A stretch of 64,000 nucleotides of DNA from Squalus acanthias. Its lineage: Eukaryota. Both the position numbers and the translations under genes were made by a program. Of this stretch, positions 6,927 to 57,400 are shown one piece after another. A model generated the notes under the pieces. That model saw only the letters and a list, made by a program, of their open reading frames with translations. It was not told the origin of the DNA and searched no databases. The DNA lies in the NCBI GenBank assembly GCA_030390025.1, contig CM059430.1, positions 10,726,001-10,790,000 of the forward strand, read 5' to 3'. Position 1 is the stretch's first letter, and each line of letters starts with the position of its first letter.

Positions 6927-7215
6927 TTAAATTGTACTGCACAATTTATAGTGATAATTGAACAGTAACAGTCATGATCATTTAATAATAGTATTGACCC
7001 TCCAGTTTGTGGGGGGGGGGGGGGGGGAGGGAGGGAATTATGGCTTGTGAGTAATTAATGAAAATGGAAGAATATGTAAACTGACACCAAGATCAGTGAA
7101 AATTACAGCACGACATTCCCTCTCATATTCTTCCAGTTGCACGTACAAAGTATTAAACGAAAGCAGACGAAATATAACTGCACCACCCACTGTAAAACTG
7201 AGTTATACAAATTAG

Positions 7216-7606
7216 CAGGTCAGGCAGCATCTGTGGAGAGAGAAACAGAGTTACCGTTTCAGGTCGATGACCCATCGTCAGAACTGGAAAAAGTTGGAGA
7301 TGTAACAGGTTTTTAAGTAAATGTAGGGGCAGGGAAAGGGGGGAGGGGAGGCAAGAACAAAAGGGAAGGTCATCCTATCACAGACCTTCCCTTTTGTTCT
7401 TTGCTCCCCTCCTCCCCCCTCTCCCTGCCCCTACACTTGCTTAAAAACCTGTTCCATCTCTAACTTGTGCCAGTTCTGAGGAAGGGTCATCGAGCTGAAA
7501 CGTTAACTCTGTTTCTCTCTCCACAGATGCTGCCTGACCTGCTGAGGATTTCCAGCATTTTCTGGTTTTTTTTCAGATTTCCAGCATCCGCAGTATTTTG
7601 CTTTTG
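7216..7606. mobile_element. Palindromic Penelope-derived element with two opposed hammerhead motifs and 10-bp TSD
   Basis: The whole unit is an inverted repeat centred near 7380; TSD TACAAATTAG at 7206-7215 and 7607-7616. Confidence 0.8.
7472..7508 (+). ncRNA. Minimal type I hammerhead ribozyme motif
   Basis: AGTT-CTGAGGA-AGGGTC atc GAGCT-GAAA-CG-TT-AACT: CUGANGA and GAAA core, stem I AGUU/AACU, one stem II mismatch. Confidence 0.65.
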
Positions 7607-8528: not shown

Positions 8529-9028
8529 NNNNNNNNNNNNNNNNNNNNNNNNNNNNNNNNNNNNNNNNNNNNNNNNNNNNNNNNNNNNNNNNNNNNNNNN
8601 NNNNNNNNNNNNNNNNNNNNNNNNNNNNNNNNNNNNNNNNNNNNNNNNNNNNNNNNNNNNNNNNNNNNNNNNNNNNNNNNNNNNNNNNNNNNNNNNNNNN
8701 NNNNNNNNNNNNNNNNNNNNNNNNNNNNNNNNNNNNNNNNNNNNNNNNNNNNNNNNNNNNNNNNNNNNNNNNNNNNNNNNNNNNNNNNNNNNNNNNNNNN
8801 NNNNNNNNNNNNNNNNNNNNNNNNNNNNNNNNNNNNNNNNNNNNNNNNNNNNNNNNNNNNNNNNNNNNNNNNNNNNNNNNNNNNNNNNNNNNNNNNNNNN
8901 NNNNNNNNNNNNNNNNNNNNNNNNNNNNNNNNNNNNNNNNNNNNNNNNNNNNNNNNNNNNNNNNNNNNNNNNNNNNNNNNNNNNNNNNNNNNNNNNNNNN
9001 NNNNNNNNNNNNNNNNNNNNNNNNNNNN
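8529..9028. other. Assembly gap (500 N)
   Basis: Run of N. Confidence 1.
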
Positions 9029-10798
9029 GGGGGGTCAGCAGGCGCGTTTGGTGGCAGGGTCGGCTGAGAATTATTTTTTTTGACAGCGGGTAGGGAACCC
9101 CCTGTCATCCCGCTGCCACGCTAGTTTCCCAGATGTTGCGTCTGTCATCACTGAACATACCTGACACCAAGCGGCGGGGGAGGCAATTTAGACGATTAAG
9201 AGCTTGTTAACAGGCACTGAAAAACTATTTCAAGCTCATCTTTAAATTTTAATAATTCGCCCATGGGTTCTCCACTGCTCGGTGATCATGTCAGGTGAGC
9301 AGGTCGGGTGCTGTGTCAGCATGGGATCATTTCTTTACTTGACAGCTGAAAATGTGCTATAAAAGCTCCCATCTCACAGCTGTTCACTTTCCAATGTCAG
9401 AAGCTGTTGCTTACTGCATTTGGAAGACAGATTGAGCTTTATGCAGCTCGCAAGTGTTTGGAGCAAACTCTCTATCCAGTGTCACCTCATTGGAACAACC
9501 TCTCTCACCATTGACAGATCGCTTCTGCCATCTCAACCTCACCTGCCATCTATTCCATCAGCATCGGTGCCCTTGAAAGTATTTCACCTTGGTCCTCAGA
9601 ATCCCACCACGGTCAGCCCCAACACCAGCAGCACCAGGCACACCAGCAGCACCAACAACAACACCAGCCTTCTCCGCAATCAACTGATTCTGCACAGGAC
9701 ACAGGGCATCAGCACCCGAGCACATTGCTGCCCGGGACGCCAGGGATGGCCTCACCATGGCCGCATCTACTTCACTTGATGCTGTACACCCTGGCTGCAA
9801 CAAGATATGCCAGGTTGGCACCACCCCACACCAACATCATAAAGCATCCCTATAATGCCCAAGCCAATCCTTTCACACTCATCGCCAATGCGGGGGGTAC
9901 AGTTATGTCTCAACATTCACTGCAACTCACTAAGCCACTTCCAAAGGTGCATAGAAATCTGTCCAAGAACGCAAAGTGTTGAAAATAAAGACTTCAATGT
10001 TTGACAGCACATTAATAGAAACTTCACATGAACATTGGCTAAAACACCCAAGTGCTTACCCTTGTGTGTTGTTAGTTGGTATGATTAGACCAGGATGAGG
10101 GTGAGTGTGAGGGGTGGCTAGTTAGATGGGGAAGTGATATTGTAGATAGAGAGGGATAGGTGGAGGTGAAAGGTAAGTTGGGGTGAGTAAGGATGTGCAG
10201 GAGTAGGGTAGGGAAGGCAGAGAGATGGGGATGTGATGAGTGGCACAGCAGGATGAGGTTTAGTGTGGCTTTGCAGTAACATTTCGTGATCTACTGAGAT
10301 CATTGAAAGGCTTGCGCCACTGCAGCCTGGACCTCCTGACGACATCTCTGCTTATGTCCTCTTGTGCAATGTGCAACCAGGCTGCGTTGATCTCCTGGGG
10401 AGGTCTCTTCGGACCAAAGGAAGGGAAGAGACCTCCCTGCGTGCTGTGACTCCCTCCATAAGCATATGGAGGGAGTCATGGGAGAGCCTGGGTGTAGTCA
10501 TGCACCTCTGTGCAGTGCTTGTCAGTGTTTGCAGCACCTCAATGCTGTAGAACACTGACAGCACAACTGGCAAAATCAATTTGCACATGGTCCCTTTAAG
10601 GAAACCGGCTGATGACGCGTCATCAAGTGACGTCATCAGACCCGCTTCCTTCAGTTGGCCGGGAAAGGCGCTGGGCGGGCTTAACAAGCCCAATCAACGT
10701 AAGATCACTTTGGACAGCGGACTGGAGCCAGCAGCAGACTGGACCCCGCCACTGACCTCGGCCACACCAGATCCGCTGAGGTCGGGGAAATCGCAGCT
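9029..10798. mobile_element. Internally deleted Harbinger derivative (paralog of 52532-54329); left TIR lost in the gap
   Basis: Colinear with 52545-54329; Myb/SANT remnant on the minus strand at about 10270-10500 (PRLSHDSLHMLMEGVTARRE...QCRKPFNDL); right end GGAAATCGCAGCT. Confidence 0.8.
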
Positions 10799-10905
10799 GT
10801 TAACTCTGTTTCTCTCTCCACAGATGCAGCCTGACCTGCTGAGCATTTACAGCATTTTCTGTTGTTATCTCAGATTTCCAGCCTCCGCAGTGTTTTGCTT
10901 CTGCT
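10799..10905 (+). mobile_element. Arm of the Penelope-derived palindromic repeat (host of the Harbinger insertion)
   Basis: GTTAACTCTGTTTCTCTCTCCACAGATGC..., the same text as 7502-7606. Confidence 0.8.
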
Positions 10906-19268: not shown

Positions 19269-19556
19269 GTTGTTGTTTGTTTTCGTATCTTCACACTCTT
19301 CCCTTGGAGAAGGATTCGCAGGCTGATTAACAGTCTGATGGGCCGCGACGTAAACGCTCTTTCCTTTGCCATAACCAGCTTCCTACCAGCCGATAGGGTG
19401 GTCGGCCCTACCTGGCCGAAGGGTTTTACGGGCTCCCACAACCCACGCGATGAGGGAGGGGGACACCCACGTTCACCGGACTCAAGTATCCCTGCTGGTG
19501 GTCAACTCAGAGCTGGAGCTCCGGTCTCCACTGGCCGGGACTGTCGGGAAACTGTC
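19269..19556 (-). mobile_element. Unclassified CpG-rich short retroposon-like insert
   Basis: The minus strand ends GATACGAAAACAAACAACAAC (simple-repeat tail); abrupt GC/CpG shift; abuts a SINE head. Confidence 0.4.
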
Positions 19557-21988
19557 AGTTTGAACCCTGCACCTTCTGACTCAGAAGCGGCAATGCTACC
19601 AATAAACCAAAGGCTTTCTGCATGACCCAGGTGAGACTGCCCAACTCATTACTTATGGGACGCCTAAGTGTAAATATAAATCAAGACCAGGATTCAACAT
19701 TGGGTCTTCTAGCTGAGCGTCCAGTGCTCAAATATTGTAGCTGCTGAGCCTTTTAGTTGTACCATACTTAAAACATTAAAAGAGCCTCTCTTCTCTGAGT
19801 TCCTCAAAATCTGTCACAAAATTAGTAAAGAGTTCCATAGCCATGTTCATTCATTCCATTTTTTTGTAATTGAAATTGCATGTATTTAGCACAGCCCATC
19901 TTGGCATGTTACAAGGATGTTTCTGTAAGCTGATCATGGAATGGCACAAGCAGGGGTTGCGGAGCTGCTCCTGGCCTGAACCAGCCCACCCTAAAGCTGA
20001 ACTTTAACCTTTGGGAGGTCATGAGGAGTCAAGAGGCCTTGTGGGAGACAACAAAATTGGAAACACGAGGAGGAGGAATTTCTAAAAATCCATAAAAGTA
20101 TTCTTCATAACCTTTTGGAATTGACATCCTGATCTTCTTAACAATTTGTGTACAAAGAATTAGGCAAAACTGATTTTACAGGGATGTCGTGTGTCAATTT
20201 ACTATTTCTTTCTCTCTTGGGCTCATTTGTAAGGAATATTTTAACTGTCTTGTTACCAGCTGTACCTTTTCATACCAGTATTAGTAAAAATGACAGAATG
20301 ATGTGACAGACTTTTTAAAACACACAATTAATTAAGTAGCGTGTCACTTAGGTATTATTTACAACGCAATTGTAAGCCAGTACACTAACCTCCTTGTTTT
20401 AATCACTTGCCATAAATTATTTTGACAGCATCACTTAACTGTGTCACAGCATTTTTCTTTCACCTTCTCACTCAATCTTTTCTGCGGACTCCATTTTATT
20501 CCCACATTTTATCGACCGTCTCCTGTCCTGAGTATTTAGCATCAGGTATTCTCATCAATCAGGAATTCCAATAGCAAAAGAGGGACCGAAATGTACAGTT
20601 TAATCTGATCTTTCCCTTCACCAGCTCATAAATACAGACATGTTTTAACTCTGCAAAACTGCACAGTGAATATGAAGCAACTACCATTTGGTAGGTCGAT
20701 CACCTCTTTATTTCCCGTTACCAGCAGAGTTTTGATTGAGAACATACATATATACATTTGCTATCAGGACGCTGAGCTCATTTTAGCCTTAAGGGAAGCA
20801 CGGTTTTACTCACTCTTGCTTGTCTTAATCTTACTTCATTTATCTGCCTAGTTCACCACTTAGAATGCTAATACATTTACCACTAATAATTCAAACTGTG
20901 ACAAGGTAATCAAGAATAATCTGTGGGCAGGGGAAATATACACAAAGCAGCAAATTAGGAGAGCTCTTGATCTAATAAAGTAATAAATAACGCTTAGGCC
21001 TTTGGCTACATGGTATCTGCTCATTTAATAGCGAAAGGGGAAAGAAAGGCTTGACAGTATAGTGCTCATTGTCCCGTAATAGCTTGATTACCTCAGGAAA
21101 AAATGCAGTCAGTGGTTGCTGCTGGTGAACCGTGAAATTGCCACTGCTCAGAGAGGCAATTTATCATTAGCATTTGGGGAGAGGGGGTTGACCCGGTGGG
21201 GATAGGACTTCAGGTACTCATCCGTAGCTTCAGCCATTGGAATGCGCACTGGAAGGTCTCCTGGCCGGGCAGCTGGCGAAGTAACTGAACCCTATTAGAA
21301 ATGCATGTTTTTAAAAATAAGGGAAGTTTAATGCACAGCCATATTGTGAGATGAATGTCTAATCGAGGAAGGCACATACTGGGAGCATTGTCTTCTGAGC
21401 TTTCGAGTGAGGTCTTTAGCTTCCCACCACAGCCAGCAAGAGTTAATTTAAACAAAAAAGCTGGTGGCTGTGCCCAAGCTGTTTCGGCTGATGGGACAGT
21501 TACACATACCCACTGAACAGGCCCGGAAGAAAAAGGCCCACCTATTGTTTGAGGACTGTGGGAGCCGATTGAAAACCAACATGTTACAAATGCTACTCCG
21601 TGAAGCTGAAATGCGTGCAGAAACCCACAGGGGGAGAAATTCGGTATCGCCCATTTTGGGGCACTAATCTCGGCCGGGCGCAAAGTTTAGCGTCCGGCGC
21701 TAATTATCGCCTCCGACTGCAAAATTCGCCTCTATCGCCCCTGGATGTGATTTGAGCATTAAATCAGGCGCTACACACCTCTCTTAAGGCGCCAACATCG
21801 GGGAGTGAATCGCTACCTCAGAACGCTACCTGGACCTCAGGCGATGTCAGTTACCATGGAACCCAGGCAGACTGGCGCCGGCCAGTTCTTAAAGGGGAGG
21901 GTCCATCTTGCTAGCCAGTCACACCCTTCTCATTGCAGCTCTGACTCTGGTGCTGGTAAGACCTACCACCATTGTGCTGAGAGGAGTG

Positions 21989-22224
21989 ATGGATAGGCCA
22001 TGGGAGAGAGCTCAGCGCTTTAGCGACCAGGCCTTGGTGGCTCTGGTTGGCGCTGTCGAGCGGCGACGGGCAGTGCTGTACCCAGAGAGTGGCAGGAGGC
22101 CATTGCCCCGGGAGTACTGAAGAGTGTGGAGGGAAGTGGCTCAGCACGTCTCCTCAAGGAGCCTGGTGCCGAGGATTCACACTCAGTGTAGGAGAAGTTC
22201 AACGACCTCACTCAGGTGGTCAGG
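21989..22224 (+). pseudogene. Harbinger Myb/SANT-like DNA-binding protein, exon 1 (premature stop and frameshift)
   Basis: MDRPWERAQRFSDQALVALVGAVERRRAVLY...REY*RVWREVA...QCR/KFNDLTQVVR followed by a GTGAG donor; TGA at 22118-22120; 1-nt loss near 22192. Confidence 0.8.
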
Positions 22225-22276
22225 GTGAGGGGCTGCTTTTCAATACCTCTACATCCCTCCATCTCAACTTCACTCT

Positions 22277-23413
22277 GTGCCCAGAGGGTTTAAAAACCCA
22301 AATGTCCAGCACTCATCCAAGACCTATGGCCATCTCATAAAAGACACATGCACACTCCACACCTTGCACACATTAAGGGCTTTTCAACTATGGGAGGCAC
22401 ATCAGACAAACACAAGGCTGCATATATTAAAGGCTATTCAACTATGGGAGGGGAGCAGGGGGGTAGGGTCTGATGACGGCGAAGCTCTTGGACCCAGCGG
22501 ACTGCAGCAATGCCATGGGGCTAGGGAAGCTTGGGGGCCATCTCCCCAGAGGGTGAGTAGGCAAGCGAGTTCTGCTGCACAGGACTCGGATGAGGACCTC
22601 GACATCGCAGCCATGAATAGCCAGGCCTTGAGCATGCACACTGAGCTCATGGGTGCAGTGGCAAGGGTGCCCAAGAGCATGAGTGGACTGGCTAGGAGTG
22701 TGGAGGAATCCGCCACTAACACAGCTGCCTTCTGTGTGCAAACCCTTGAACCCATCCTTGCCTCGTTGCAGAGGATGGTGGAATTGCAGGGAGAACCGTG
22801 GGGAACCAGAGCCCATGCGCGTGTAATGGGTGAGGTGGCAGGATCCATTGCAGCACAGGCCGAGGCAACGCAACGGCTTAGTGCTGCAATTGAGTCATTG
22901 GCTGGTGCCATTCAATCTCAGACTGCTCTCATGCAGTCTCAGATTGATGTCACGCAAGCGCTGACTGCTGCCATCATTGCTGGGTCACCCACAGTCCCTC
23001 GGGGATCTGACAGTACCGCAGCAGGCCAGCAATCTGTGCTCGAGCAGATTGCTCCGGATGCTGAGGTTCTGCCCCGGGGGAGTGGCAGTGTGTCGGTCGA
23101 GCAGGAAGGTGCTGCCCTCTCTCAGGATGACAGCATTCCTGCTCCCACCACTGCCACTCCGCCATTGCACTTGGCACGGCCTGTAAATCCAGCCAGCCCA
23201 GACTGCTGCCGCCCTATGCAGAGTTGGTGCAGTCTGCAGCCAGGCCCTCCATGCCCAGAGCTGGTCGAGGACGTCCTTCAAGGCCATCTGCAGTCTCTGG
23301 ATCCAACATTCAGCAGCCTTCCGCCAGCCTTGCTGCAGCCACTGGGGCCACATTACGGAGGAGCAGTAGGGTGGGAAGGGGGGAAGTGCACAGGGGTTGG
23401 AAGTTACCCTTGA
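22277..23413 (+). pseudogene. C-terminal (helical, low-complexity) part of the Harbinger Myb partner gene
   Basis: 378-codon open frame inside the TIRs, downstream of the Myb exon; Ala/Gln-rich helical segment; exon boundaries unresolved. Confidence 0.6.
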
Positions 23414-23734
23414 AGGGCCACCAGTAGAATGTGTAAATAAATGGGGGGAATATTTGTGGGAAAGTTCGAGGTTCTTGTTATTATATTTGTTTTGTGTTTT
23501 GCCGTTTATCTCCATGTTGTGAGAACGAGTTTTGTTATTCATGATTTGTTGTGTTGGTTTCTAATTGTTTGTCCTGAATAAATGACACAGAATTTGTAAT
23601 ATAAATACATTTTTTAATTCTAACTTTACATATTTGGTCCTTTGACTCATTGCAGCTTTGCCCAGCAATGTGGGGTGCGGGATGCTTTCCGTGATGTGCT
23701 TCTTCATCCCAGAAGTCATCTTCTCAGTAAGGGC

Positions 23735-24919
23735 TTAGAAGCAGTGTCTTATGAGCCGTTCACGGACGGCCCTTGCAGTGACAATATTGTGCGCCTCCCT
23801 CCCACGTTGCTGCTGCTGATACTCCTCTTCATCCTCCTCCTCCTCTCCCTCTTCCTCCTCCTCCTCAGGTGGTGCACCAATCCCTGGTGGCAATGGCTGG
23901 GTCCTCATAATCGCAATGTTATGCAGCATGCAGCACACAACAATGAAAAGGCAGACTCGCTCAGGTGAGTACTGCAGGGCTCCTCCTGAGTGGTCCAGAC
24001 ACCGGAACCGTTGTTTCAGCACGCCGATCGTCTGCTCTATGAGGTTCCTGGTGGCGCTATGGCTCTCATTATATTGCAGCTCAGCAGGGGTATTGGGGTT
24101 ACGGAGCGGTGTCATCAGCCAGGTGCAGAGTGGATAACCTTTGTCCCCGAGGAGCCATCCACTTGGGTGATGCGGTGCTTGGAAAAGGTCTGGCACACCA
24201 GTCTGGCGCAGGATGCAAGCATCGTGGCTGGTGCCAGGATAGCGGGCATTGATGGCGAGGATGAGCTGTCTGTGGTCGCAAACCAACTGGACATTTAAAG
24301 AGTGGAAGCCCTTGCGGTTTCGGAAGACATCTGCATTTTCATGCGGTGCCCGCAATGCCACTTGCGTGCAGTCAATGGCGCCCTGAACCATGGGGAAGCC
24401 GGCTATCCTCGCAAATCCATAGGCGCATTTGCGCTGTTTGTCCTGGGTCATGGGGAAAGAGATGTACTGGCGTCTCCTCTTATACAGAGCATTTGTCACC
24501 TCCCGGATGCAACAATGCACAGCGAACTGGGAGATATTCACTATGTCCCCAGTAGAAGCCTGAAAGGAACCGCTGGCATAAAAATTCAGAGCCACTCTCA
24601 CCTTCACTGCCACCGACAGAGATGTCCTGGTCCTGAGTTGAGGCTGCAGATCTGGCTGCAGGAGGTGGCAGAGCTCAGAGACCACCTCCTTGCTGAAGCG
24701 CAGCCTGCGCAAACACTGCTCCTCAGACAAATGAATGTAGGAGAATTGCTCCCGGAATACCCTGGGAGGGTAAGGTCTCCTGTGCAGAGGCCTGATGGCC
24801 CTCCTCCTTCTGGCCATGTTTGCCACTTTCTCTCTGCGCCTCTGAGGCCTCCGATTGTGCAGCTGGACGACGACACCCTGAGTTAGTGCAGCCCCCATAG
24901 AAGCTTCTAAATATGGCAA
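23735..24919 (-). CDS. Harbinger DDE transposase (HARBI1-like), 394 aa, apparently intact
   Basis: GAIDCTQV, NRKGFHSLNVQ, WLLGDKGY, RNLIEQTIGVLKQRF, CCMLHN motifs; acidic tail; no stops. Confidence 0.93.
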   Translation of the reverse strand: MPYLEASMGAALTQGVVVQLHNRRPQRRREKVANMARRRRAIRPLHRRPYPPRVFREQFSYIHLSEEQCLRRLRFSKEVVSELCHLLQPDLQPQLRTRTSLSVAVKVRVALNFYASGSFQASTGDIVNISQFAVHCCIREVTNALYKRRRQYISFPMTQDKQRKCAYGFARIAGFPMVQGAIDCTQVALRAPHENADVFRNRKGFHSLNVQLVCDHRQLILAINARYPGTSHDACILRQTGVPDLFQAPHHPSGWLLGDKGYPLCTWLMTPLRNPNTPAELQYNESHSATRNLIEQTIGVLKQRFRCLDHSGGALQYSPERVCLFIVVCCMLHNIAIMRTQPLPPGIGAPPEEEEEEGEEEEDEEEYQQQQRGREAHNIVTARAVRERLIRHCF

Positions 24920-26269
24920 ATATGAAGGTGAAATAAAAATTAACCTCCAAAGTGGTTCTCAGGACCCAAAACTCCTTTGGACGGCGTCGAATCTCTCCAG
25001 ACGTCTCGCTCCCTCTCAATCTGCGTGTTCCAAAAATTTCGCCGACAAGAAAAGGCAGGAAGCGGCTGCCTTTAAATAGCGCTCCCCCAGCCTCTTCCCA
25101 ACTTGAAAACGTTCTCCTCTACCTGTTGAAACTCGTGGCAGGCGCTAAGGCAGGGGGCGCGACTCAATATCCGGTCCGGGGCGCTACCGGAGCGCTGCAC
25201 GCTTGACTGACGTCACGATCTGCGGGCGCAGGAGATCGTGGCGGTAGTGTTTAGCGCCGCCGCAAAACGACTGGTCAATTTCGCGAACGGCGTTAAAATC
25301 GCCACGCTCGGGCGCTAAGTTCCTAGCGCCCCGTTAGCGCCCCCCGGAGGCGCTAACCAACCGAATTTTTCTCCCATAGGGTTTCAGCTTTTATTGCTAA
25401 TGTGTTTACGGAATTTATTCAAGGCAAATTTTTTCCAACCTGTGAGGTTATTTTGAGAATTTAGCAGAAATTGCTGTCTGGATTGCCCTGGAATGTGTCT
25501 GAAGTGGGGTAGAGACACCTCTGTTGCCAGCATGCCTCAACTAAACTCGTTACAATGCGAGCAAAAGCACTGTCCCTTTCACCAGTAGTGAATGGGGCAA
25601 TGCTGTTTCACACATTTCTCCACTGTTAGGATATGAGTGGGATATTGAGCAGATGCAAGAGCTATAATTGACAGTGAGAAAACATCAATTAAGAATAGAC
25701 GTGTTGCAGTGCATATTGAGAACCAGGATGGTTTAGAACTGGCCGACGCTCTTGTTCCAGATGTGCTGTTATAAAGACTTCAAGCTTCTCTCGAACTGGG
25801 CTAATCTGAACCAGGAAAATGTCTGGTTCTGCTCCAGCAGCAGCTGCAGTATAGCTACAAGCCAATTTCGGTTCTGGGTTACACATTCCAGGTGAATGAT
25901 GCAGCAATAGGTGGGCACAAGACATTATTGCAACATTGTCCATTGCATTTGAGACAATCCGCATTTGCACAGTAAAATCAGTAAAAAAAATTTACAATCC
26001 AATCTGCTTATGACACCACCCTCTGTTTCAGGATATCAGCTAGATCAGGCATATTTACTATTCTGAGAAGTACAAAATGAAGTTTCAGGGCAAAATTCTC
26101 CTGTATGCCTTTATGTGAATTTTAGCAACAAGGTAAAGGTGAATAAGAAGAAAGTAGAAAGCACTATTAGACTGCTCATCCATGTTTTAGTGCTGGTCTA
26201 ACTATTCCTAACCTTCCAATATTAGATTAACAATCATTAGCAAGATATGAGCAAAAGAGCCAATTTTTA

Positions 26270-34739: not shown

Positions 34740-37677
34740 TGTGGCAGGGGGTTGGGAACCTGAGCAGGGAGACAGAGGAAAGCATATCAGGAAGGGACAG
34801 AAGGTATGGAGTAAAAGGTAAAGTGTTAAATAAGGAAAAAGCAGGAAGTAAGTGTCGCAAAACACATTTGAAAGTTCTTTATCTGAATGCACGTAGCATT
34901 CGTAACAAAATTGACCAGTTAACGGCACAAATAACTACGTATGGGTATGATCTTGTGGCCATTACAGAAACATGGCTGCAGGGTGAAAACGTCTGGGAAT
35001 TAAATATGCCAGGGTATTTAACAATCAGGAAGGACAGGCAGGAAGGAAGGGGAGGGGGGTGGCTATGTTAATAAAGGAAGGAATCACTGTAATACAGATA
35101 AATGATATTGGGTCAAAAGATCAGGATAATGAAACAGTTTGGGTAGAGATTAGGAATAATAAGGGGAAAAAAACACTGGTGGGCATAGCATATAGGCCTC
35201 CTAATAGTTGCAACTCTGTTGGAAGAAGTATTAATCAGGAAATAGTTGGGGCATGTAATAAGGGAACAGCTATAATTATGGGGGATTTTAACTATCATAT
35301 TAACTGGACAAATCAAATTGGGCAGGGCAGCCTTGAGGAAGAGTTTATTGAGTGTCTTAGGGATGGATTTCTTGAGCAGTATCTAACTGATCCTACAAGG
35401 GGGCAAGCAACCTTGGACCTAGTACTGTGTAATGAGTCTGGATTAATTAATAATGTCCTAGTTAAGGATCCCCTTGGAATGAGTGACCATAACATGGTTG
35501 AATTCCATATCCAATTAGAGGGTGAGAAGGTTGGTTCTCAAACAAGCATACTGAGCTTGAATAAAGGAGACTATGATGGCATGAGAGCAGAATTGATTAA
35601 AGTGGACTGGGAAAATAGATTAAAGGGTAAGACGGTACATGAGCAGTGGTGTTCATTCAAGGAGTTATTTTACAACTTTCAAAATAAATATATTCCACTG
35701 AGGAAAAAAGGGTGTAAAAGAAATGACAGCCATCCATGGCTAAGTAAAGAAATTAAAGAAAGTATCCAACTAAAAACAAGGACATATAAGGTAGCCAAAG
35801 TTAGTGGGAGGATAGAAGATTGGGAAGTCTTCAAAAGACAACAAAAAGTAACTAAAGGATTGATTAAGAAAGGGAAAATAGACTATGAAAATAAATTAGC
35901 AAAAAATATAAAAACAGATAGCAAGAGTTTCTATAGTTATATAAAAAGAAAAAGGGTGGTTAAGGCAAACATAGGTCCCTTAGAGGATGAGACCGGGAAA
36001 TTAATGGTGGGAAACATGGAGATGGCAAAAATGCTGAACAAATATTTTGTTTCAGTCTTTACGGTAGAGGACACTAAGAATATCCCAACACTGGACAAAC
36101 AGGGGGCTCTAGTGGGGGAGGAGCTAAATACGATTAAAATTACTAAGGAATTGGTACTCAGTAAAATAATGGGACTCAAGGCGGATAAATCCCCTGGACC
36201 TGATGGCTTACATCCTAGGGTCTTGAGGGAAGTGGCAGTAGGAATTGTGGATGCTTTGGTAATAATTTTCCAAAACTCCCTGAACTCAGCAAAGGTCCCG
36301 GCAGATTGGAAAACTGCTAATGTAACACCCTTATTTAAAAAGGGTAGTAGGCAGAAGGCTGGGAATTATAGACCAGTTAGCCTAACATCTGTGGTGGGTA
36401 AAATTTTGGAGTCTATTATTAAGGAGACAGTAACGGAACATTTAGATAAACATAATTTAATAGGACAAAGTCAGCATGGCTTTATGAAGGGGAAGTCATG
36501 TCTGACAAATTTGCTCGAGTTCTTTGAGGACATAACGTACAGGGTGGATAAAGGGGAACCAGTGGATGTAGTGTATTTAGACTTCCAGAAGGCATTCGAC
36601 AAGGTGCCACATAAAAGATTATTACTTAAGATAAAAAATCACTGGATTGGGGGTAATATTCTGGCATGGGTGGAGGATTGGTTATCTAACAGGAAGCAGA
36701 GAGTTGGGATAAATGGTTCATTCTCGGACTGGCAACCAGTAGCCAGTGGTGTTCCGCAGGGGTCGGTGCTGGGTCCCCAACTCTTTACAATCTATATTAA
36801 CGATTTGGAGGAGGGGACCGAGTGTAACATATCAAAGTTTGCAGATGATACAAAGATGGGAGGGAAAGTAGAGAGTGAGGAGGACATAAAAAACCTACAA
36901 GGGGATATAGACAGGCTGGGTGAGTGGGCAGAGATTTGGCAGATGCAATACAATATTGGAAAATGTGAGGTTATGCACTTTGGCAGGAAAAATCAGAGAG
37001 CAAGTTATTATCTTAATGGCGAGAAACTGGAAAGTACTGCAGTACAAAGGGATCTGGGGGTCTTGGTGCAAGAAAATCAAAAAGTTAGTATGCAGGTGCA
37101 GCAGGTGATCAAGAAAGCCAATGGAATGTTGGCTTTTATTGCTAGGGGGATAGAATATAAAAACAGGGAGGTATTGCTGCAGTTGTATAGGGTATTGGTG
37201 AGACCGTACCTGGAGTACTGCATACAGTTTTGGTGTCCATACTTAAGAAAAGACATACTTGCTCTCGAGGCAGTACAAAGAAGGTTCACTCGGTTAATTC
37301 CGGGGATGAGGGAGTGGACATACGAGGAGAGGTTGAGTAGATTGGGACTCTACTCATTGGAGTTCAGAAGAATGAGAGGCGATCTTATTGAAACATATAA
37401 GATTGTGAAGGGGCTTGATCGGGTGGACGCGGTGAGGATGTTCCCAATGATGGGTGAAACTAGAACTAGGGGACATAATCTTAGAATAAGGGGCTCCTCT
37501 TTCAAAACTGAGATGAGGAGAAACTTTTTCACTCAGAGGGTAGTGGGTCTGTGGAATTTGCTACCCCAGGAAGCTGTGGAAGCTACTTCATTAAATAAAT
37601 TTAAAACAGAAATAGACAGTTTCCTAGAAGTAAAGGGAATTAAGGGTTACGGGGAGCGGGCTGGAAATTGGACATGA
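34739..37677 (+). CDS. CR1 ORF2 (APE endonuclease + reverse transcriptase) with a single frameshift at a G-run
   Basis: YLNARSI, AITETWL, IIMGDFN, SDH; KSPGPDG, NYRPVSLTS, LDFQKAFD, GVPQGSVLGP, FADD; the 110-aa and 872-aa ORFs join at G6 (35054-35059). Confidence 0.9.
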
Positions 37678-50893: not shown

Positions 50894-51413
50894 AGTGTTC
50901 TCCAAGGCGGCCTTCGAGACACACGACAACGCAAAATCATCGAGCAGAAACTGATAGCCAAGTTCCGCACCCATGAGGACGGCCTCAACCGGGATCTTGG
51001 GTTCATGTCACGCTACATGACGTCGAGTCATCCAGACTCGAGTCGTCGTTGGCTTGTTCACAGATGTGATTTACAGTTTTAAAAAAAAGTAAAAAGCTTA
51101 ACCATACAGACTGCAGCATTTGACACGTTGGACCCCCTGTGACCCCACCTCATTGTCTTAGCTGTATTTTGCTGTGTCTTTGATGTAATGCCTTCCTGAC
51201 TGGCCTGATTGTCTCTCTGCCGAGGTGTGATGGAGGGCAGTCAGAAAGATTTACTGTAGTCGTCTGACATTGTACGCTACACATTGTTCTCTGTCTATAT
51301 ATGCTTTGCTGATTTGTATTCCTTCACTTTACCTGACGAAGGAGCAGCGCTCCGAAAGCTCGTGATTTCAAATAAAACTGTTGGACTATAACCTGGTGTT
51401 GTGCGACTTCTCA
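50894..51413 (+). mobile_element. Penelope-like element 3' fragment (GIY-YIG endonuclease C-terminus + pseudo-LTR)
   Basis: 50894-51016 translates SVLQGGLRDTRQRKIIEQKLIAKFRTHEDGLNRDLGFMSRY (conserved E and GLN); followed by a hammerhead motif, AATAAA and the LTR end. Confidence 0.8.
51329..51365 (+). ncRNA. Minimal hammerhead ribozyme motif in the Penelope pseudo-LTR
   Basis: TTAC-CTGACGA-A-GGAGC agc GCTCC-GAAA-GC-TC-GTGA; perfect 5-bp stem II. Confidence 0.75.
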
Positions 51414-52045
51414 TTCAGGTCATTTATATATAACAAGAAAAGCAATGGTCCTAATACTGACCCCTGGGTGACCCCACTGCATACTTCTCTCCAGTCAGAA
51501 AAACATCTGTACACCACTACTCTCTGCCTCCTATTACTTAGCCAATTACATACCCAAGTTACCACCGTCCCTTTAATAGCATGTGGTTCTATTTTCCGAA
51601 TAAGTCTGTTATGCAGTACTTTATCAAATGCCTTTTGAAAATCCAGATCTACAACATCTACTGCACTACCTTCATCAACCCTCTCTGTTACTTCATCAAA
51701 GAACTCAATCAGGTTAGTCAGACACAATTTGCCTTTAACAAATCCATGCTGGCTGTCCCTTATTAACCCATGCTTCTCCAAGTGCGAATTAATTTTGTTC
51801 TTGACAATGCTCTGTGGTAGTTTGCCCACCACTGACATGAGACTGATTGGCCTGCAGTTACCAGGTTTATCCCTCTCCCATTTTTTGAACAGGGGTGCAA
51901 CATTTGCAATCCTCCAGTCCTCTGGTACCACTCCAATATCCAAGGAGGAATGAAAGATTGTGGACAGAGCTTCTGCTATCTCCATCTTAGCTTCACTCAG
52001 CACCCCAGAATGCATCCCACCTGGACCGGGTAACTTGTTGACTTT
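51414..52045 (-). mobile_element. CR1 ORF2 RT-domain fragment
   Basis: PEDWRIANVAPLFKK, SQHGFVKG, LDFQKAFDKV, GVTQGSVLGPLLF. Confidence 0.9.
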
Positions 52046-52425
52046 GCCAACCTATTTAGCACCTCCTTTCTGCCTATGATCACTCTTTTTGGTTGATTTC
52101 AATCCCACCTTTCAATCTTATTCCTCTATCCTCCTATTTCACAAAGGGCATCAGTAGGTGTCTCTTGAACCCATTACATTATTTGCTTGAATGGCTTTCC
52201 CTGGTAACTTATTCTGTATTGAGACTATTGCTATTTCTATCTGGTCTGCCATTACTCTCTGTGAAAAGCAGGCCGGTAACAAATCCAGGGCATGAAAGCA
52301 ACATTCTACATATTGCGCCTGCTGCTACACAACAGTATCTCGCTGGCAACTGATGAAAACAAAGGCGCTCCACCTTTAGACATAGGCCAAGCCTCAGAAC
52401 CTGATCCCAACATTATTATACTATT

Positions 52426-54495
52426 ACAAAAGCAAAATACTGCGGATGTTGGAAATCTGAAATAAAAACAGAAAATGCTGGAAATACTCAGCGGGTCAGG
52501 CAGCATCTGTGGAGAAAGAAACAGAGTTAACGGGCTGGATTTTGCGGGGGGGGGGGGTTCAGCGGACGCAATCGGTGGCGGGTCGGATGGGAAAATGTTT
52601 TCTTTCCCCAGCGGCTCGGGACCTCGCTGTGAACCCACCACCACGTGCCTTTCCCCGATGTCGGGTCTGTCAGCGCTGAGCAGACCCGACATACAGCGGC
52701 GGGTTCACAGCGGGGGACCTAATTCAGGTAATTATTGGCTTGTTTAGAGCCACTTAAGAATGAATTTCAGCTCACCTTCTGCATTTGACAGCTCGTCCAC
52801 GGGGTCCACGCTGGTTGTGGACTCCGTCTGTCAAGCTGAGGCGGGAGTTCAGTGGCCATTGAATCAGCTGTTGAGGTGAGAGCTTCAAATGTACAGTAAA
52901 AGCTCCCACCTTACACAGATATCTTCCCTCAGCCACAAGCTCTTCCTCGCTGCATTTCCACAACAGATTCACCATGCTGCAAGTCTTTACACCAGTCTCC
53001 AGCCAGTCTGACCTCATTACCTTTCTCACCATTGACAGATCGCTTTAATCATCTCTACTTCACCTGCCATCTATTCCATCAGCGTGGGTGCCCTTTATAC
53101 TCTCTCACCTTGGTCCTCAGAATCCCACCATGATCAGCCCCAACACCAGCAGCACCAGGCACACCAGCAGCACCAACAACAACACCACCAACCTTCTCCG
53201 CAATCACCTGATGCTGCACAGGACAGAGGGCATCAGCACCCGAACACATTGCTGTCCAGGAGGCCAGGGATGGCCTCACCATGGCCAGATTTACTTCACT
53301 TGACACAGTACACCCTGGCTGCCACATGATGTGCCAAGTTGGCACCACCCCACACCAACACTAAATGCTGGCCTTGCCAGCGACGCCCACATCCCATAAA
53401 AAAAACGAATTAAAAAAAACACCATAAAGCTTCCCTACAATGCCCAAGCCATTCCTTTCACACTCATCACCATTGTGGGGGGTACCGTTATGTCTCACCA
53501 TTCACTGCAACTCACTAAGCCACTTCCAAAGGTGCACACACATCTGTCCAAGAACACAAAGTGTTGAAAATAAAGGTTTCAATGTTTGACACCACATCAA
53601 CAGAAACTTTACATGAACATTGCATAAAACACCCAAGTGCCTAACCTTGTGTGTTGTTAATTGGTATGATTGCACTAGGATGAGGGTGAGTGTGAGGGGT
53701 GGCTAGTGTGATGGGGAAGTGATAATGTAGATAGAGATGGATGGATGGAGGTGCAAGGTAAGTTGGTGTGAGTAAGGACATGCAGGAGTAGGGTAGCGAA
53801 GGCAGAGTGATGCGCATGTGATGAGAGGCACAGCAGGATGAGGTTGAGTGTGGCTTTGTACTAACGTTTCGTGATCTACTGAGATCCTTGAAACATTTGC
53901 GGCACTGACCACATCCCTGCTTGTGCCCTCCTCTGCAATGTGCAACCAGGCTGTGTTGATCTCTTGGGGAGGTCTCTTCCACCCATGAGAAGGGAAGAGG
54001 ACCTCCCTGCGTGCTGTGACTCCCTCCACAAGCACCTCTGTGCAGTGCTTGTCAGTGTTTGCAGCACCTCAATGCTGTAGAACACTGGCAGCGCAAATGT
54101 CAAAATTAATTTGGCCATGGTCCCTTTAAGGAAACCGGCTGATGACGCGACATCAAATGACATCACCAGACCTGCTCCCTCTAATTGGCCGGGAAACGCG
54201 CTGGGCGAGCTTAACAAGCCCACTTAAGGTAAACTCATTTCAGAGGCCGGGATGGAGCCAGCAGCGGGGTCAAGACCCTCCTCCGAGGTCGCATGCCACA
54301 GACCCGCTGAGGTTAGTGAAATCACGGCCAACGTTTCAGGTCAATTAACTTTCATCAGAACTGGAAAAAAATTAGAGATGTAACAGATTTTAAGGAAGTG
54401 CAGAGGCAGGGGAACAGGGGCGGGGAGGAAAGAACAAAAGGGAAGGTCTGTGATAGGGTGGAAGGCAGGAGTGAGTAAATGACAAAAGGGATGAT
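52426..54495 (-). mobile_element. Penelope-derived repeat interrupted by a Harbinger derivative
   Basis: Arm at 52426-52531 resumes at 54330 (AACGTTTCAGGTC...TCAGAACTGG). Confidence 0.75.
52532..54329. mobile_element. Internally deleted Harbinger derivative with TSD AAC
   Basis: TIRs GGGCTGGATTT / AAATCACGGCC; TSD AAC at 52529-52531 and 54330-54332; Myb remnant on - at about 53860-54035 (QCRKCFKDL). Confidence 0.85.
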
Positions 54496-57400
54496 TGCTG
54501 GGTGGCTATGCCAGGGCCTGTAGATATGGTTGATGGCATAATGGAAAGGCGTGTGCAGTCCTGTTTCAGCTCCTGCTGATCGCCTTGATTCTTTTCATCT
54601 TACACTATTTCAACAATGACTTCATAACAAACCCCCATCACTAACTTTATTTGACCTGTTGACCACTAAGGGACTCTTCACTAAGATGTGGTATTGCTCC
54701 CTGAGCTCCCGTGAAAGTTTCTCCAGCACAAGTTCCTTTTTCATGAACCCACTTTTCTTAGCTCTTCCTACTTCACTGAAGTCTTATAAATGCTTCAATT
54801 ATATTTGTCATTCCGGGGAATTAGCAGACAAGACTTGGCTATTTTAGGTTCCAGACAAACATTGCATGCTGTTAGGAGAAAGGAAAAAACATTCTCCGAA
54901 ATGTTTTCCTTTTTAAAAAAAATTATTTTTTTTTAAATAAAAATACAAACAAAAATTAATAGCTGGAGCCAGTCCTAATGCACTCTATAAAAAGGCGGAA
55001 AAGCTCCTGATCCTTTTAATAACTCCAGATGGGAACAGGGAGTGCTCAGCTCCATTTTGTTCTAAGCCTATGAAAATCACATTAGGCTTTAATTCAATGT
55101 ATTATAATATTTAAATAAAGCCCTGGCTTCTTTTTGATTGAGACTACTTTCGGCCAGTTTAAAATGTGTACTGGAAGATCCTGGTTGTCACGAAAGTTGT
55201 GTAGGTCTCGATATGTGGAACTGAGCTAATATTTGAGGTCTTCCAATGTCTGTTCTGCTCTTGCAACCTGGCCTTAAGGGCAGGAAATAAACCCCCATTG
55301 TCCGTTTCATATAGAATTATTCATCACAGCTGATTTATACTGAATAAAACACTGCCTTTCCTAAACACACACACAGACAGCTCCTGAGTTGGAGTGCTAG
55401 GCCCAAAATTCCTGGCGGTTCACTATTGCCCCGGTATGCACGACTGCCAAAGGCCAATTTCACCCCCAAAAGCCTCGTGTCTCTAATACACTTTTTTTTT
55501 GAGCATCTCACATGCATTCTATGATTTTATGTGTTCGCTGCAGCATTGACTGTTCTGGAGTGTCTCCCAGATGCAGAGGAAAACCCGGCTTAAGGTTGTG
55601 TCTGAGCAGAAGCAACAGCCCGTTCACTGATCCAGGTACGAGCCCTCAGCAGACTTCAGGCACCTGAATTTCTTGTGGTCCCACCATATCGGCAGAGGTG
55701 TATCCGGGTGGGACTTCCACCTACCTGTTCCTTGCGCCTCTGACCCCCGCGCACTGCCCAGAGTCAGGAGCGTTTCGTTATATTTGATATAAATTCTATT
55801 TATTTTAAATTTATCTTTGGCAAAGAGTTGTACCTGCCAAGAGGCTGACTCCCGGGACAGGGTACTCAGTGACAGGTCGATGTAACCTTCTCTACAACCG
55901 GTTTTTCCCTCTTTTTCTTGCCACAAATCCACTTCCCGGCTTGGTCCTGGATCTTTCGAGTGGATCAAATGAAGTCTTTTGTTATATCCTTAGGCGTTCT
56001 GAGCCATGAAGGAGAACTGGTTGGACGCATGTCGCCTACACCACGAGCTTAACCTTTATTGGGACTTTGCTGGAATAGAAGAAACTCAACAAAGACCAAA
56101 GCTCCCTTCACCACCCCTTCTTGGTGTACTCCTGATGGACTACTTCCAGGTAGAGTTGGCATCCACCATGACCCCAGGCACCAATATGACTGACCAGGAA
56201 TAGAACCTAAGAGCAGGAGTAGAAACAAGTATCTTCTGGTCGGTATGGCTTTCATACCCATGCTTATCTCAGCCAGCAGAGCAGAGGAATCGTACAATTG
56301 GCCTCAGTGCCCTGGACGAGAGAGGAGGAAAAAGTGAATGTTAGGTGAGAACCGGATTGAACTCAACGGTGATGCCTTCCACAACTGAACAGCCTCCTAG
56401 CAAACGCTATTTAGGCTTTCACATAAAGAATAGCTACTTGGGCGAGGCACTGAAGAGCTTTTGGCATTGCAGAACTGTACCGCAATTAGAGTCAGCCCTT
56501 TCAGCGGAGAAACTGGGAATTAAAACAAAAAGGATATACTGTGTGCTAGGTCTAGCATTGCAAGAGGCCCTGCCTTCTAGAGTTTGCATCTTGCCTGAAC
56601 CACAGAGGAGCTAAAGCCAGCCCTAGCCTTTTACCTCATCCCGTATGATTGATTGCGTGCTTTTGTTTTCTGCCTATGGACAGCGCTCTGCGGTTCTTGG
56701 TGATGGTTGTGGGATCTCTCAGGAAAAGAGTCTCATGAGGCCCAAGCAGAAAAATCACGAGGCAAAGGAAAGTAATCCTCTTCTGAGGGAAACATTTCTG
56801 CTTCCTATTTTGAAGAGAATAGCTAATTCCCTACAGAAGAAAATATTAAAATTCATCGGTTCATCCCTGTTGTATGTAAATAAAATTTAAGTCATTGTTG
56901 TAATTCAAGTAAAGTAGCTAATGCTTTTTTTCACCTAATTTGGCCGAACACTTTTATTTCCCTCTACTCAGTAACACAGCATAGCATGGCTTCCTGTATA
57001 ACACATTAAGCTTGACAGATTCCACTTGAAGCAATTCCATTTGCAGTCATTTCTTGTTAATTTTTCTTCACTCATAGTTTGATTTGCACGCATCCTGTGG
57101 CATGAAAAGGCTACTTGATTGAAAATGTGTTTTAACTGGCTACTTCTTGCCTCCTGTTTCCTATTGTTTCCTTTGTGGCCTGAGACCCACACTCTTCTAC
57201 CTTTCAGCCCTGCTGTCAGAGTCGATTTGTATGGGCTATTGTTTGCCACTGAGGCAAGAATCAAGGTGGCAGTGCGAGCGAGATTGTTTTCTGGTTAAGG
57301 TGTCTATCAACGGTGTCCTGGGTCATTGCTTCTAGTGCAATGTTTACCTAATGATTCTTGCCACTTCCCCTTTCTTTGTTGCTCAAGCACTTTGTTCTTT

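Follow-up and report, generated by a model that had tools for sequence, protein, structure and literature searches.

The two related Harbinger copies that adjoin a hammerhead-like motif in 64,000 nucleotides of Squalus acanthias DNA (the whole stretch analysed here, called the window) very probably belong to an ordinary non-autonomous family, for which this site is a passive hot spot spelling its degenerate palindromic target motif, since a very abundant Penelope repeat offers that motif in about 74,000-167,000 copies. We regard this as a well-quantified case in which a mild sequence preference and a high-copy repeat together produce single-base hot spots that resemble targeting in a small window. 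The features concerned are as follows.

52532..54329, no strand assigned: non-autonomous Harbinger-type DNA transposon, copy 1, 1,798 bp, with imperfect 14-bp terminal inverted repeats (TIRs) at 52532-52545 and 54316-54329
52529..52531, plus strand: left copy of the AAC target-site duplication, which is GTT in ribozyme orientation, read from the sequence
54330..54332, plus strand: right target-site duplication AAC, read from the sequence
53703..54068, minus strand: decayed Myb/SANT-like ORF (Harbinger second protein), PF13873 at E 0.2 here, over the Pfam cut-off in three relatives
54333..54500, minus strand: 5' part of the host's Penelope-like terminal repeat, carrying the hammerhead core (CTGATGA at 54358-54352, GAAAC at 54337-54333)
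52430..52528, minus strand: host repeat, 3' part, opening with AACT (52528-52525), the helix I 3' strand, read from the sequence
9029..10798, no strand assigned: copy 2 of the same Harbinger family by alignment to copy 1, left terminus lost in the gap
10799..10900, plus strand: GTT and then the host repeat's 3' part, in opposite orientation to copy 1, read from the sequence
8529..9028, no strand: assembly gap of 500 N that hides the left junction of copy 2
7476..7508, plus strand: uninterrupted host hammerhead-like motif, an empty site with GTT at 7502-7504, from sequence and motif scoring

Copy 1 is bracketed by AAC at 52529-52531 and again at 54330-54332, and the host repeat is continuous through both sides of the insertion, which bears out the sequence-only reading that the element splits a hammerhead-bearing repeat and duplicates these three bases. 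Copy 2 can be aligned to copy 1 along its whole assembled length (75% and 82% identity). Its right border at 10798 is directly followed by GTT-AACTCTGTTTC (the flank reads GTT-AACTCTG), and this is the copy 1 site in reversed orientation, just as had been proposed. About 21 terminal bases and the left junction of copy 2 lie inside the N gap; comparison of contigs from 4 of the 20 listed public runs with 9030-9500 yielded only short repeat pieces, so that the gap was not bridged and this junction was not identified. Further empty copies of the host repeat are present in the window, and host-repeat copies also occur there as inverted pairs at 7214-7603 and 740-930, giving long hairpins typical of Penelope insertions. 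The Rfam matches at 7271-7487 are miRNA models that overlie such an inverted pair.

Judged by its sequence context, the host is the terminal repeat of a Penelope-like element, because its copies sit downstream of reverse transcriptase (RT) and GIY-YIG frames. In one such locus (L223), matches to RVT_1 (E 4e-6) and to GIY-YIG (E 2e-4) that narrowly miss the Pfam cut-off and fall in fragmented frames lie upstream of the hammerhead, which follows about 360 bases past the end of the GIY-YIG frame on the same strand. The motif comprises CTGAYGA, a 5-bp helix II, GAAAC-GTT and a 4-bp helix I, and in ribozyme orientation the insertion site reads CTGAYGA...GAAAC-GTT-AACT. We take the duplicated GTT to be positions 16.2, 16.1 and 17 (GUU) in standard hammerhead numbering, that is, the predicted cleavage triplet; the earlier claim that the duplication is the NUH triplet of a minimal hammerhead thus stands for a motif that we file as hammerhead-like only. 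As the Rfam hammerhead models were unmatched both at the gathering threshold and at E values up to 10, the putative ribozyme assignment rests on the core motif, its pairing and the Penelope context. Across 28 aligned copies, most of them fetched via the conserved 13-mer, 96.8% of the cells are paired over nine pairs, and the CUGANGA and GAAA boxes, helices I and II, the NUH triplet and a palindromic 15.2-16.2 are all present. The first helix II pair is A-U in 15 and G-U in 13 of these copies, the usual G10.1-C11.1 being absent, and the count of compensatory pairs among the 28 was zero, which is uninformative for close repeat copies. Folding of the monomer gave no hammerhead fold (z 0.72 and -0.35), an equally uninformative result because helix III is absent and failure is expected.

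Minimal hammerheads are described in the pLTRs of Penelope-like elements, and such motifs are stated to cleave weakly and as dimers, in the available text of PMC4209133; minimal hammerheads are also the subject of a review, consulted in excerpt (PMC6155905). The host motif resembles the metazoan pLTR hammerheads, as far as the accessible part of PMC4209133 describes them, in its type I core lacking loop 3, its palindromic 15.2-16.2, the extra base after position 9, the short helix I and the location downstream of an RT and GIY-YIG ORF, whereas it departs from them in having A-U or G-U as its first helix II pair, in matching no Rfam model and in showing no compensatory changes. The exact host 13-mer occurs 73,611 times in the genome, and sampling 400 kb evenly gave 18 sites, from which about 167,000 copies of the host motif are estimated.

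The insertion of copy 1 falls between the core and the helix I 3' strand, splitting the predicted host ribozyme as had been suggested, and would abolish self-cleavage of that host copy, whose helix II, in the part at 54333-54500, is decayed. Such loss of cleavage would matter little, since only about 1-2% of the sites are hit: any Harbinger-like end, searched with a loose pattern, gave 1,089 and 867 junctions on the two sides of the hammerhead site, and 867-1,089 junctions over 73,611 sites correspond to about 1.2-1.5%.

The imperfect 14-bp TIRs of copy 1 (GGGCTGGATTTTGC and GGCCGTGATTTCAC) are conserved in its relatives. Among 77 paired ends, which include a few duplicates, an exact 3-bp target-site duplication (TSD) was found in 42 and at least two of three matching bases in 64, while duplications of 4 or 5 bp were found in none. 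The Myb/SANT-like PF13873 domain, weak in the window copy (E 0.2), scores over the Pfam cut-off in all three relatives that were picked for an open frame, and no transposase ORF was found within 52532-54329. A 4.2-kb transposase-coding element (L383) has three segments in common with the element at 70-80% identity, encodes a transposase 57% identical to the PF13359 protein of the window and occupies the same host site in the Penelope repeat. Taken broadly, the family counts as a non-autonomous Harbinger, and its members may be moved in trans by the transposase and Myb protein of a related autonomous element. Assignment to the narrow PIF/Harbinger group, as defined in the available text of PMC4482050, was rejected, because TWA duplications occur in only 14 of 129 other, non-host sites with aged flanks. 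The family does share with the PHIS and PIF-Harbinger groups of that source, within the part available, short TIRs starting with G/A, a 3-bp TSD, a Myb/SANT ORF and a related element with a DDE_Tnp_4-type transposase; unlike theirs, its TSD is not strictly TWA, CWG or ANT. Its C|NNN|G frame resembles that of NuwaII (C|TNA|G) with a looser centre (PMC4482050, same portion).

Another Harbinger element spans at least 21630-24958 of the window; a TIR-like sequence opens it at 21630, and its DDE_Tnp_4 transposase frame of 407 codons occupies 23735-24958 on the minus strand. Harbinger-type ends are very abundant genome-wide, one TIR 12-mer occurring in 72,543 copies. The accessible text of PMC9179366 reports that Harbingers were not found in elephant shark and names other cartilaginous fish as worth checking.

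For the genome-wide use of the site, right ends of the family were counted by a 24-mer with 629 genome matches, a count that is independent of window copies 1 and 2 as neither is matched by it. Exact 8-base flanks placed 8 and 7 right ends at the hammerhead site in its two orientations, and patterns tolerant of decay recovered true host flanks in 13 of 16 and 11 of 12 further matches. The union amounts to 15 + 11 = 26 of 629 right ends, or 4.1% (2.7-6.0%), as a lower bound, against 0.03 expected under uniform insertion, an enrichment of about 900-fold, so the genome-wide flank check proposed with the sequence-only reading did reveal enrichment for the hammerhead repeat. Four of the first 100 right ends listed lie at the site, as do three of the 27 copies most closely related to copy 1. 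The left end could be located in 12 of the 15 site-inserted elements that were fetched whole (in the other three it was not located), and all 12 have host repeat on both sides, with an exact duplication in 7; a Penelope end landing beside a Harbinger was rejected on this ground.

The occurrence of both orientations (15 and 11) and the lack of clustering on the family tree, where site-inserted copies require 19 label changes against 18.98 after shuffling, agree with the earlier view that the insertions are independent. This tree was built from the last 750 bases of 151 rows, 20 of them at the site, with duplicates left out, and it is star-like and of low power. That the junctions are instead copies of one or a few composites, in which a Harbinger inside a Penelope end was spread by retrotransposition or duplication, we hold to be exceedingly improbable: although the host is a retroelement that could carry passengers, and some of the non-host flanks are segmental duplicates, the insertions occur in both orientations, the inserts differ in length and come from many unrelated families, their outer host flanks differ, and the copies are scattered on the tree within its low power.

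The target preference was modelled from 129 right and 64 left flanks, with host sites excluded. These non-host flanks are diverse and share the palindrome RANAC-WWW-GTNTY, to which outer positions add more weakly, for 6.4 bits in total; in the family sample, several other repeats carry two or more hits at a single base. The hammerhead's GAAAC fits a half-site of this motif perfectly, and in a motif lacking loop 3 the triplet comes directly next to it, so the duplication falls on the triplet. The duplicated GTT/AAC itself is atypical, WWW being found at 66 of the 129 other sites. Within an empty host copy the highest score falls on the triplet, at 8.8 bits, 373-fold over the average, and a model with about three host flanks in its training set gave a similar result (9.0 bits). 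Target choice would be read from DNA sequence, and the motif model trained on the non-host flanks predicts 1.7% of ends at the hammerhead site (bootstrap 0.7-3.8%) against the 4.1% seen.

The observed fraction is about 2.5-fold over the model (binomial P 4e-5 against a fixed 1.7%), and the two intervals overlap once the uncertainty of the model is counted. This residual excess could reflect partial adaptation, i.e. a Harbinger preference tuned to the Penelope site as a harmless and renewable landing place, or a repeat context (the overlapping palindromes AACGTT and GTTAAC, DNA shape, open chromatin) that adds to the base preference. We think this unlikely. It draws on the excess itself, on the hammerhead site being the largest hot spot seen for the family, on the use of the same site by several Harbinger families and on the presence there of three among the 27 closest to copy 1, but Harbinger3_DR of zebrafish has a motif of the same type in the available text of PMC3016246, and the model errs in a consistent direction at each of the four sites tested, use being higher than predicted at good sites and lower at poor ones (the best site is under-predicted and the two poor ones are over-predicted), as decayed flanks blurring a sharper plain preference would produce. 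The second-best host position (6.8 bits, 43 junctions) lies 6 bases downstream and falls about 20-fold short of the triplet in use, where 4-fold is expected from the model. The deviations at the best and the two poor sites point to a true preference sharper than the aged flanks reveal, CpG decay being visible at the junctions, and such a preference would absorb the 2.5-fold residue. It is quite improbable, in our estimation, that the excess is real tuning by Harbingers early in specialising on the Penelope hammerhead site, with cleavage-competent Penelope ends being eroded by DNA transposons; since GAAAC is the conserved catalytic core, the landing pad would on that reading be hard for the host element to mutate away.

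Other sites allowed use to be compared with motif score. A second family of hammerhead-like motifs, GAAAG-CTY-GTRAT (87,435 exact sites, 3.3 bits), adjoins a different Penelope ORF in locus L233, and 0 and 0 Harbinger junctions were found at its triplet with the loose end pattern. This minimal motif of a second Penelope family, seen at L233:1632 and 8149, in L206 and in L028, has a G-C first pair in helix II and a CUU/CUC triplet. At a LINE-like site, GACAC-AAA-GAGTCTG (11.5 bits), 1,393 of 7,746 occurrences of its 12-mer adjoin a TIR-like end (18%), a per-site use by the wider Harbinger set more than 10 times that of the hammerhead site (e.g. L318, L326, L344). The repeat in question is presumably CR1; the 12-mer was used for counting because an empty-site pattern (1,999 matches, control 810) is too narrow in its upstream half. 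For the family itself, 1 of 629 ends was found at the LINE-like site with one orientation tested, two of three pattern matches being other sequence. Inserts at the hammerhead site have many sizes, fall into several sequence clusters and include many other Harbinger families, and extrapolation from each list's first 100 rows puts an estimated 550 of the 72,543 GGGCTGGATTTT ends (0.8%) there. Use of the sites ranks with motif score and not with ribozyme status, in counts that pool all Harbinger-like ends and with a motif model trained on one family.

A family specialised on the hammerhead repeat, aiming at its cleavage triplet, had been proposed from the two window copies, both at the site, and from the duplication lying exactly on the predicted triplet, to which the roughly 900-fold enrichment over uniform insertion can now be added. 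Such specialisation nevertheless appears highly improbable: 603 of the 629 counted ends (about 96%) were not found at the site and the general motif explains most of the enrichment, site-inserted copies form no clade, and targeting of the ribozyme itself is opposed by the empty triplets of the second hammerhead family, by the heavier per-site use of a non-ribozyme LINE-like site among the wider Harbinger set and by the many other Harbinger families sharing the hammerhead site. Among target-specific elements nested in other mobile elements, such as Tx1L in Tx1D, most copies lie in the host. Like Tx1L, the window family inserts repeatedly at one base of another mobile element, yet only about 4% of its ends (26/629) are at the host site.

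A known system close to the window family is Harbinger3_DR of zebrafish, whose target is given as AAACACCWGGTCTTT in the available text of PMC3016246. There too, a 3-bp duplication is centred in a palindromic target and the second protein is Myb-like, and the half-sites of its target fit the RANAC / GTNTY of the window family, whose motif is in contrast far more degenerate (6.4 bits), with a W-rich centre rather than CWG, and whose members are non-autonomous. With four repeat sites, thousands of copies each and use ranked by motif score, the genome offers natural tests of target choice, and were the residual excess true adaptation, a DNA transposon would be exploiting a catalytically constrained RNA motif. 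In the open-licence literature, we found no description of such exploitation or of Harbinger insertion in Penelope hammerheads, and Harbinger is unmentioned in the accessible part of the bioRxiv preprint 10.64898/2026.07.22.740005.

Several minor observations concern other repeats. A repeated unit on C1 with an identical Harbinger end and flank was seen in 9 of 30 loci (L306, L308-L311, L322, L323, L331, L332) and is a tandem or segmental amplification. Retroelement sequences in the window include an 896-aa LINE ORF2 carrying endonuclease and RT at 34987-37677 on the plus strand and an RT fragment at 51386-52051 on the minus strand. At 19308-19382, on the minus strand, an HDV-like (CPEB3 family) ribozyme match of 37.6 bits, above the Rfam gathering score, is probably the 5' end of a retroelement.
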